From Octopus vulgaris (lineage: Eukaryota): a stretch of 64,000 bases of DNA. Every line of letters begins with the position of its first letter. Position 1 is the stretch's first letter. The position numbers were made by a program, and so were the translations under genes. The stretch covers positions 39,184,001 through 39,248,000 of the forward strand of contig OX597829.1 of NCBI GenBank assembly GCA_951406725.2. The letters run 5' to 3'. This document shows positions 32,878-34,346 of the stretch, one piece after another. The notes below the pieces were generated by a model that had not been told where the DNA came from, did not search any database, and was given only the letters and a program-made list of their open reading frames with translations.

Positions 32878-33342
32878 ATTTGTATTTTGCTTTCTGATAA
32901 ACTCTTCTTTATCCTGTTGTTACCTGCACTCTAAATGCATAGTGTGCCTGCACATCAATTCCCGGGGATAACAGGGGTAACGGATACCGATAGTATATAC
33001 GGATATTTTATCCCTTGGTTATTATAACCGCTAAGTCTGTTTACACTATATATATATATATATATATATATATATATATATATATATATATATATATATA
33101 TATATATATATATATATATATATATATATATATATATATATATATATACTAAGTAATTAAGGGTTTAGCAACGATTTGCCTCACCACACACCGAATTTAG
33201 AGTTATCGCTATTCAGTCAAAGAGTTATCGCTATTCTTTCTACTAAAAGGGAGATCTCAGTAAAACCACAGCACTTGAAAGGCAAACACAAACAGGCAAG
33301 AGAGAAAGAAATGACAGCAATCTATCATACAATTTTAAGTCA

Positions 33343-33433
33343 CCTACGGACGTACGTTTCGAGATTAAGTTTTAGGAAAGCATAAGAATTAGATAATTAT
33401 GTCTTACCCAACTTCTTCTCTCATCAGCGTAGG
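33343..33433 (-). ncRNA. Type I hammerhead ribozyme, copy 1, intact core
   Basis: Minus cctacg-CTGATGA-gaga...tctc-GAAA-cgtacg-TC-cgtagg: 6-bp stem I, extended stem II, palindromic stem III, GUC cleavage site. Confidence 0.85.
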
Positions 33434-33926
33434 ACACTACAATTATGAATAATTGTATATTAAATTTCGAGATACTAGAAGGCATCATCTCAACTTGGTA
33501 TCAGAGCGAGCTAAAACTGTTACCAGTATCACTAAATTCAAAGTGTGAATGAAAGTTCATGTCAGCAACCCCTTCCCACCCGCGTGTAGCCAAGACAAGA
33601 TGTTGCGGTCATTTACTGGGATGAAATATGGTTATCAGTAATAAAATAGGGTAAAACTAATTAATTTGGAATAATCAATTAATTTCACCAAGTAGATTTC
33701 GGCATGTAAAAGCCTCGTTCGAGGAAAGTTTAAGTAATACTAAGTAATTAAGGGTTTAGCAACGATTTGCCTCACCACACACCGAATTTAGAAATAGCAG
33801 TCAAAGAGTTATAGCTATTCTTTCTACTAAAAGGGAGATCTCAGTAAAACCACAGCACTTGAAAGGCAAACACAAACAGGCAAGAGAGAAAGAAATGACA
33901 GCAATCTATCATATAATTTTAAGTCA

Positions 33927-34017
33927 CCTACGGACGTACGTTTCGAGATTAAGTTTTAGGAAAGCATAAGAATTAGATAATTATGTCTTACCCAACTTCT
34001 TCTCTCATCAGCGTAGG
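33927..34017 (-). ncRNA. Type I hammerhead ribozyme, copy 2, intact core
   Basis: Same sequence as copy 1, offset by 584 nt. Confidence 0.85.
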
Positions 34018-34346
34018 ACACTACAATTATGAATAATTGTATATTAAATTTTGAGATACTAGAAGGCATCATCTCAACTCGGTATCAGAGCGAGCTAAAA
34101 CCGTTACCAGTATCACTAAATTCAAAGTGTGAATGAAAGTTCGTGTCAGCAACCCCTTCCCACCCACTTGGTGAAATTAATTGAGTTTTACCCTATTTTA
34201 TTACTTATATATATATATATATATATATATATATATATATATATATATATATATATATATATATATATATATATATATATATATATATATATATATATAT
34301 ATATATATATATATATATATATATATATATATATATATATATATAT

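Follow-up and report, generated by a model that had tools for sequence, protein, structure and literature searches.

A non-coding hammerhead repeat family of Octopus vulgaris whose copies end at two fixed sites in TA repeats

We have analysed a 64,000-nt stretch of Octopus vulgaris DNA (the window) and found that it contains a young representative of a repeat lineage that is non-coding and numbers thousands of copies in the genome. Our main reading, to which we give a probability of roughly 80%, is that the ends of the copies of this non-coding hammerhead repeat lie at two fixed sites and within TA repeats, and that the repeat is likely copied by the protein of a Penelope-like element (PLE), probably from a circular or an uncut multimeric RNA.

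The window copy is an inverted insertion composed of a 1,019-nt arm that runs from one fixed site (S1) and a 40-nt arm that runs from the other (S2). Positions inside the unit are given on the minus-strand monomer, where q1 is 33932, the base right after the predicted cut, and q584 is 33349. The direct part (33147-34165) comprises 1.74 units of the hammerhead repeat; a 300-nt block recurs in the element at 99% identity with a spacing of 584 and a 56-nt block at 100% identity with a spacing of 591. The longest stop-to-stop frame within the element is 74 aa, and the non-coding tandem of about 1.7 units described in the original prediction was confirmed. On the minus strand, a 5′-truncated upstream unit (q352-584, 33933-34165) is followed by the full 584-nt monomer between the predicted cleavage sites (33349-33932), which lacks an ORF, and then by a last partial unit (q1-196, 33147-33348) that terminates at S1 and includes a private 22-nt local duplication (33199-33236). 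The monomer has a GC content of 36% and its folding is stronger than that of shuffled sequences (z -4.8). The second arm (34166-34205, plus strand) consists of q237-255 and q277-297, with 17 nt missing, and terminates at S2. This piece had been taken for an inverted copy of internal sequence; it is indeed inverted, but not a random internal copy, as its terminus is the second fixed start site. The long (TA)n tracts expected on both flanks are present, one at 33047-33148 adjoining the 3′ end and the other at 34206-34346 adjoining the S2 end.

Both predicted type I hammerheads were located, 584 nt apart and identical to each other. Motif 1 (33343-33433, minus strand) has a 6-bp stem I, a 60-nt stem II and a palindromic stem III, and reads cctacg (33433-33428), CTGATGA (33427-33421), stem II, GAAA (33360-33357), cgtacg, TC (C17 at 33349) and cgtagg (33348-33343), with the predicted cut between 33349 and 33348. 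Motif 2, located 584 nt upstream (34017-33927, minus strand; C17 at 33933), has its predicted cut between 33933 and 33932. A strict hammerhead descriptor gave three matches in the window and none in 100 simulated 64-kb sequences. The Rfam check proposed with the original prediction was negative: nothing in the window reached the gathering score and no hammerhead family appeared at E ≤ 10, an outcome for which the length of stem II is the probable reason. We therefore identify the motif by the descriptor and by covariation. In the predicted circular fold, stems I and II are formed (pair probability >0.9) and stem III is absent (0.01), while the stem III palindrome would form a duplex of -9.8 kcal/mol with a second copy. 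A dimeric arrangement of this kind has been described for the type I hammerheads of animals (Cervera 2014, PMC4209133). The window also contains another hammerhead family, unrelated to the first, at 34666-34977 and about 47640-47720 as short inverted structures beside TA runs, with its core at 34852 on the plus strand and 47718 on the minus strand and stem III ACATATGT; similar motifs were seen at two other loci (L038 and L313).

The repeat unit gave 2,128 first-look candidates in the genome, and among the best 40 scored the full-length matches were 92-100% identical. Exact searches found 262 genomic matches to a pattern from the hammerhead half and 5,393 to a pattern from the 3′ module, the reversed control of which gave none. 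Copies are dispersed on most large contigs with unrelated flanks. They fall into at least eight subfamilies with units of 529-594 nt, including A, to which B (591-nt unit) and C (554-nt unit) are 69% and 55% identical, respectively, and further subfamilies with spacings of 529 and 594 nt. No description of this hammerhead family was found in the literature, although it may be listed in Repbase, Dfam or paper supplements; the accessible text of Marino 2022 (PMC8967140) mentions Penelope in octopus, without hammerheads.

Comparison of subfamilies showed that the type I motif is present in both window units, in all 10 motifs of a long array (L065) and in subfamilies B and C. Stem I has been swapped wholesale between subfamilies with its pairing kept, the versions being CCTACG/CGTAGG, CCCATG/CATGGG, ATTATG/CATAAT, CTTGGG/CTCAAG and ACTGTA/TACAGT. 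Across 29 stem I haplotypes 84% of positions paired, against 66 ± 2.5% when shuffled (maximum 75% in 2,000), a figure that includes about four mis-anchored rows of the 49 in the hammerhead table. The core 3-8 pair (n = 148) was C-G in 119 motifs, U-A in 17, U-G in 10 and C/A in 2, and covaries across subfamilies, as does stem I; U3-A8 is a known variant of PLE hammerheads (Cervera 2014, PMC4209133). The core and at least five of the six stem I pairs were kept in 136 of 148 anchored motifs, a proportion inflated by the many loci picked by hammerhead sequence. Stem II varies among subfamilies from 26 to 70 nt. The self-complementarity of stem III noted in the original prediction extends to most subfamilies seen, in which it is palindromic or nearly so, and in some it is only ACGCGT, too short for closing as a monomer. 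In the three subfamilies tested, the hammerhead strand folded better than the opposite strand. Judging from these alignments, the ribozyme is under selection, and the compensatory changes in the catalytic core pair across subfamilies indicate that cutting itself is selected.

The other conserved part of the unit is a structured module at q100-300 (33633-33833 on the minus strand), with S1 inside it (about 33737) and S2 at its end (about 33633). Three-way identity was 58-66% in this module and 20-38% elsewhere in the unit. In the helices of the 3′ module 98% of cells pair, a value reached by none of 500 shuffles; double changes and G-U pairs preserve the helices, and each of the 26 changes on one side only produces a G-U pair on the hammerhead strand. 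Because the same 12 sequences served both to derive the structure and to test it, these values are support rather than proof. We regard the module as a candidate region for reverse transcriptase binding and initiation. A 77-bp tandem repeat elsewhere in the window (11965-12357) has a 14-mer, GGCTGCTATTTCTA, in common with the module (profile E about 0.1).

The ends of the copies were typed in 145 loci: 29 best matches to A, 29 to B, 28 to C and 59 hammerhead-anchored loci, the latter coming from the 60 stretches that the first 100 pattern matches gave once loci already included and three clusters had been left out, with one more locus dropped at a stretch edge. S1 was defined as q175-205 (mostly 196) and S2 as q280-312, together 11% of the unit; they lie about 195 and about 300 nt past the cleavage site. 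Results showed that 198 of 208 3′ ends fell at S1 or S2 (47 of 80 at S1 in the hammerhead-anchored loci) and that 189 of the 208 adjoined TA runs, within which a target-site duplication is unreadable. The 5′ ends were scattered (n = 82, 39 of them adjoining TA). Genomic copies are thus not freely circularly permuted, the arrangement that the original prediction had proposed looking for, because variation is confined to their 5′ ends, the 3′ ends being fixed. Two 3′ ends were present in 63 loci, and in 54 of these both lay at fixed sites: 53 combined S1 with S2, one S2 with S2, and none S1 with S1. In a set not selected by its ends, all 17 were S1+S2 (P about 2.5e-6). The S1-S2 stretch makes up a tail of about 105 nt, and in subfamily A both sites lie 11-19 nt beyond an ACCCT motif.

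The octopus copies show the pattern reported for PLEs (Craig 2021, PMC8557442): they form partial tandems, insert into (TA)n, and have a tail at one end together with an inverted 5′ copy. In vitro, the PLE tail is bounded by two internal start sites, both target strands are extended by the PLE, and its protein is predicted to be a dimer (Frangieh 2024, PMC11167929). By analogy, we infer that the two arms of an inverted insertion come from the two target strands, and the inverted piece at 34166-34205 would be a second cDNA primed on the opposite strand. We hold PLE-type target-primed insertion to be very probable. A Penelope-like enzyme, the mobiliser suggested in the original prediction, is the most likely agent, as fixed 3′ ends, S1+S2 pairs and TA targets fit PLE insertion; against this stands the fact that an autonomous partner was not found among the families sampled.

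Which RNA serves as template is addressed by the sequence at the predicted cut site, where 272 exact matches run through and six have another base before the cut. Two of these six are one locus with a small deletion, one is a point mutant and at most three are truncations; three stops at the site are slightly more than a rough chance estimate of less than one. Many copies span two cut sites. Units of the same locus differed by 1.1% in direct arrangement (97 of 8,685 columns) and by 0.9% in inverted arrangement (93 of 10,028), mostly at private sites, and only 25 of these 190 differences had both alleles in three or more other loci; differences between loci were mostly 1-5%. The low and mostly private variation within loci indicates that most insertions come from one template sequence in one event. 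Two insertions (L184 and L011) have arms that carry alleles from different copy sets, which suggests gene conversion or the use of two different RNA templates during a single event. Because the cut site is read through, a cut linear monomer is not the usual template, which is likely to be an uncut or a re-joined RNA. A re-joined circle, proposed for animal retrozymes by Cervera 2020 (PMC7229834), is the form predicted most simply by selected cutting together with read-through, and we lean slightly towards it as the usual template.

A competing explanation to which we assign a serious chance, if somewhat under even, is that PLE-type insertion proceeds from an uncut linear multimer or a read-through transcript, the hammerhead being protein-assisted or rarely cutting and the circle unneeded. 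Read-through of the junction and near-identical units in each locus fit this explanation equally well, and stem III is not formed in the predicted monomer fold. In addition, uncut RNA was the main in vitro substrate of a PLE, no reads ended at the cut site and hammerhead cleavage was not needed for insertion (Frangieh 2024, PMC11167929), and one of nine Xenopus retrozyme dimers was cleaved in the work of Li 2026 (10.64898/2026.07.22.740005). However, the 5′ ends do not accumulate at any point that could be a transcript start, tandems in a linear cycle with 5′ truncation would be expected to become shorter unless they were regenerated, and the compensatory changes in the core pair imply selected cutting. 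Among sequencing runs, none on record as RNA lists the window stretch; assembled contigs from four runs presumed to be RNA cover the unit, some bridging the cut site, and are equally compatible with precursor, circle or DNA. The unit also occurs in four further runs with four organism labels, and in all the runs whose contigs contain it carry five organism labels. A back-junction read is no proof of a circle, since the same junction exists in genomic tandems. The array L065 (G000:C8:3133797-3139511), of about 10 units with 10 hammerheads, was considered as evidence for rolling-circle copying and rejected, because its private alleles follow a period-2 pattern that indicates local growth.

A different possibility, which we consider unlikely, is that an autonomous PLE family is still present and was missed by our sampling, and that the unit is its pLTR or derives from it by internal deletion. 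Such an origin has precedent, as 24 of 57 Xenopus retrozyme families were homologous to known elements, nearly all of them PLE termini (Li 2026, 10.64898/2026.07.22.740005), and our genome searches scored only the best 40-150 candidates, with flanks of 1.5-3 kb. In the search for GIY-YIG families, the best 150 of 6,136 candidates were scored and 30 loci were taken. The genome contains intact PLE ORFs of 781, 775 and 767 aa, belonging to young families whose termini adjoin TA runs; RT and GIY-YIG domains were recognised by Pfam in the 781-aa protein, and the 781- and 775-aa families carry hammerhead-like motifs. These last two families were seen at L061-L064 and L293. In the 781-aa family the hammerhead-like core is of the U3-A8 kind (TTGATAA), and the youngest copies of the 775-aa family have the core CCGAAGA and termini at two sites about 30 nt apart. 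None of the three families had sequence in common with the unit by blastn or module profile, and neither did a Neptune-like family, five minor GIY-YIG groups and two Naiad remnants. The published Octopus Naiad consensus had one exact 28-base genomic match.

Where the original prediction allowed that copies might always form the 3′ pLTR of a coding Penelope element, none of 227 element-anchored loci (a few of them duplicates) had the unit in the pLTR position of a PLE ORF, and the unit carries no ORF with RT and GIY-YIG, so the element does not qualify as an autonomous PLE. Pieces of PLE ORFs lay near the unit in eight of the 227 loci. Six were separated from it by TA runs of at least 18 nt and one was inverted at a distance of 570 nt; in the eighth, at L134:3-970, a family A copy and a truncated PLE are oriented alike and meet at a short TA site, the former with its S1 end and the latter in mid-RT. 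Six loci examined as links between unit and PLE (L038, L057, L066, L106, L295 and L043) were rejected, each being a separate TA-bounded insertion. Also against a pLTR origin, an old subfamily still keeps a 589-nt non-coding spacing and the hammerhead, and five motifs of the unit had no relevant match in the accessible consensus sequences of Craig 2021 (PMC8557442), in which line breaks can hide matches. The window itself contains a frameshifted remnant (57085-58067) of an abundant PLE that is presumably Neptune-like, with a GIY-YIG domain below the Pfam cut-off and 18,659 genome candidates for its protein, and broken frames (52138-54647) that by eye resemble a LINE endonuclease and RT.

Finally, it is very improbable that the unit is a satellite-like repeat or a DNA transposon that recombination or local duplication has spread and in which the hammerhead is incidental: local amplification occurs in L065, and local tandem growth from a PLE terminus has been proposed (Li 2026, 10.64898/2026.07.22.740005), but the dispersed copies with unrelated flanks, one-sided truncation, fixed sense-strand 3′ ends, inversions and RNA-type G-U pairs kept on one strand largely refute it except for long arrays.

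Under our preferred reading of PLE-type insertion from a circular or uncut multimeric RNA, transcription of a tandem copy would yield RNA of the hammerhead strand and is likely the work of Pol II, as six T4 runs make Pol III unlikely. Two hammerheads are predicted to pair through their palindromic stem III and then cut, and the monomer to be closed into a circle in which the lone hammerhead is inactive. A PLE protein with RT and GIY-YIG domains would bind the q100-300 module, nick (TA)n and begin cDNA internally, at S1 or S2. The sequence of the copies passes the cleavage junction and stops at scattered points, which yields partial tandems. Insertions with a 3′ end on either side combine S1 with S2, and a single protein dimer may prime both target strands, using one site on each. 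Long arrays are later amplified in place, at least in part. We put forward only tentatively, and with some doubt, a fuller version in which the lineage is long-lived, consists of self-standing non-coding circular RNAs and has diversified into many subfamilies, without an autonomous parent that shares their sequence. These RNAs would be about 590 nt long, with a hammerhead working only as a dimer and a 200-nt fold that docks a Penelope dimer asymmetrically (one subunit at S1, the other at S2), and would be copied round the circle.

The octopus family shares with animal non-LTR retrozymes non-coding, low-GC tandem units with a type I hammerhead in each, forms from monomers to multimers, a palindromic stem III and the presence of PLEs in the same genome. 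The original prediction considered its unit longer than typical, which holds against the usual size of about 300 nt (about 529-594 nt here, with a stem II of 26-70 nt), but the unit is inside the published range, given as 51-972 bp by Li et al. 2026 (10.64898/2026.07.22.740005) and as 150 to >1000 nt by Cervera and de la Peña 2020 (PMC7229834). Most octopus copies are partial units scattered through the genome, with inversions and fixed 3′ ends, features not described for non-LTR retrozymes in the accessible portions of these two papers. The octopus unit had no pLTR homology in the PLE families sampled; cleavage and circles have been demonstrated for animal non-LTR retrozymes and are predicted for the octopus family. 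With endonuclease-bearing PLEs it has in common partial tandems, 5′ truncation, an inverted 5′ copy, a tail at one end, (TA)n targets, two fixed start sites downstream of the hammerhead and the U3-A8 core variant. It differs from them in lacking an ORF and in its tail of about 105 nt, compared with 30-40 in PLEs; S1+S2 pairing is near-absolute in the octopus family, whereas the wording in the PLE papers goes no further than ‘often at one end’.

Plant LTR retrozymes are also non-coding and hammerhead-delimited, with circles of 600-800 nt, but they are described as having LTRs with hammerheads of type III, together with a primer-binding site and target duplications of 4 bp, whereas the octopus hammerhead is of type I. 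The 12-mer TGGTATCAGAGC at 33496-33507 of the window (plus strand) is altered in the second unit and missing from subfamily C. It presumably resembles the plant tRNA-iMet primer-binding site; as it is not conserved, a plant-type primer-binding site was rejected at this position and, given also the type I motif, membership among plant LTR retrozymes was ruled out. A search of the element found no tRNA module.

The identification as a retrozyme made in the original prediction is supported by a type I hammerhead in each unit of a non-coding tandem, with two or more hammerheads in succession; the element also shows the fixed 3′ ends, variable 5′ truncation, inverted copy, tail at one end and TA target of a non-autonomous PLE. 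On these sequence features, we classify the element as an undescribed family of a known kind, a non-LTR retrozyme and non-autonomous PLE.

PLEs have been called ‘a strong candidate’ for moving animal retrozymes (Cervera and de la Peña 2020, PMC7229834), and the mechanism of retrozyme mobility is, according to Li et al. 2026 (10.64898/2026.07.22.740005), still to be worked out. If the tentative reading of a circular-RNA lineage were true, it would amount to direct evidence that animal retrozymes are reverse-transcribed by a rolling-circle route, and it would establish a minimal signal, independent of sequence, that marks cargo for Penelope enzymes. The kind of element is known, and the usefulness of the octopus family lies chiefly in its ends, which record the insertion mechanism. 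It supplies the marks of insertion at scale, namely read-through of the cut site, TA targets and a pair of fixed start sites, each used once in an inverted insertion, and it combines a small RNA that has a natural alignment of covarying subfamilies with intact candidate enzymes in the same genome. The choice between a circular and an uncut template, as well as the S1/S2 asymmetry, thereby becomes testable in an existing in vitro assay.
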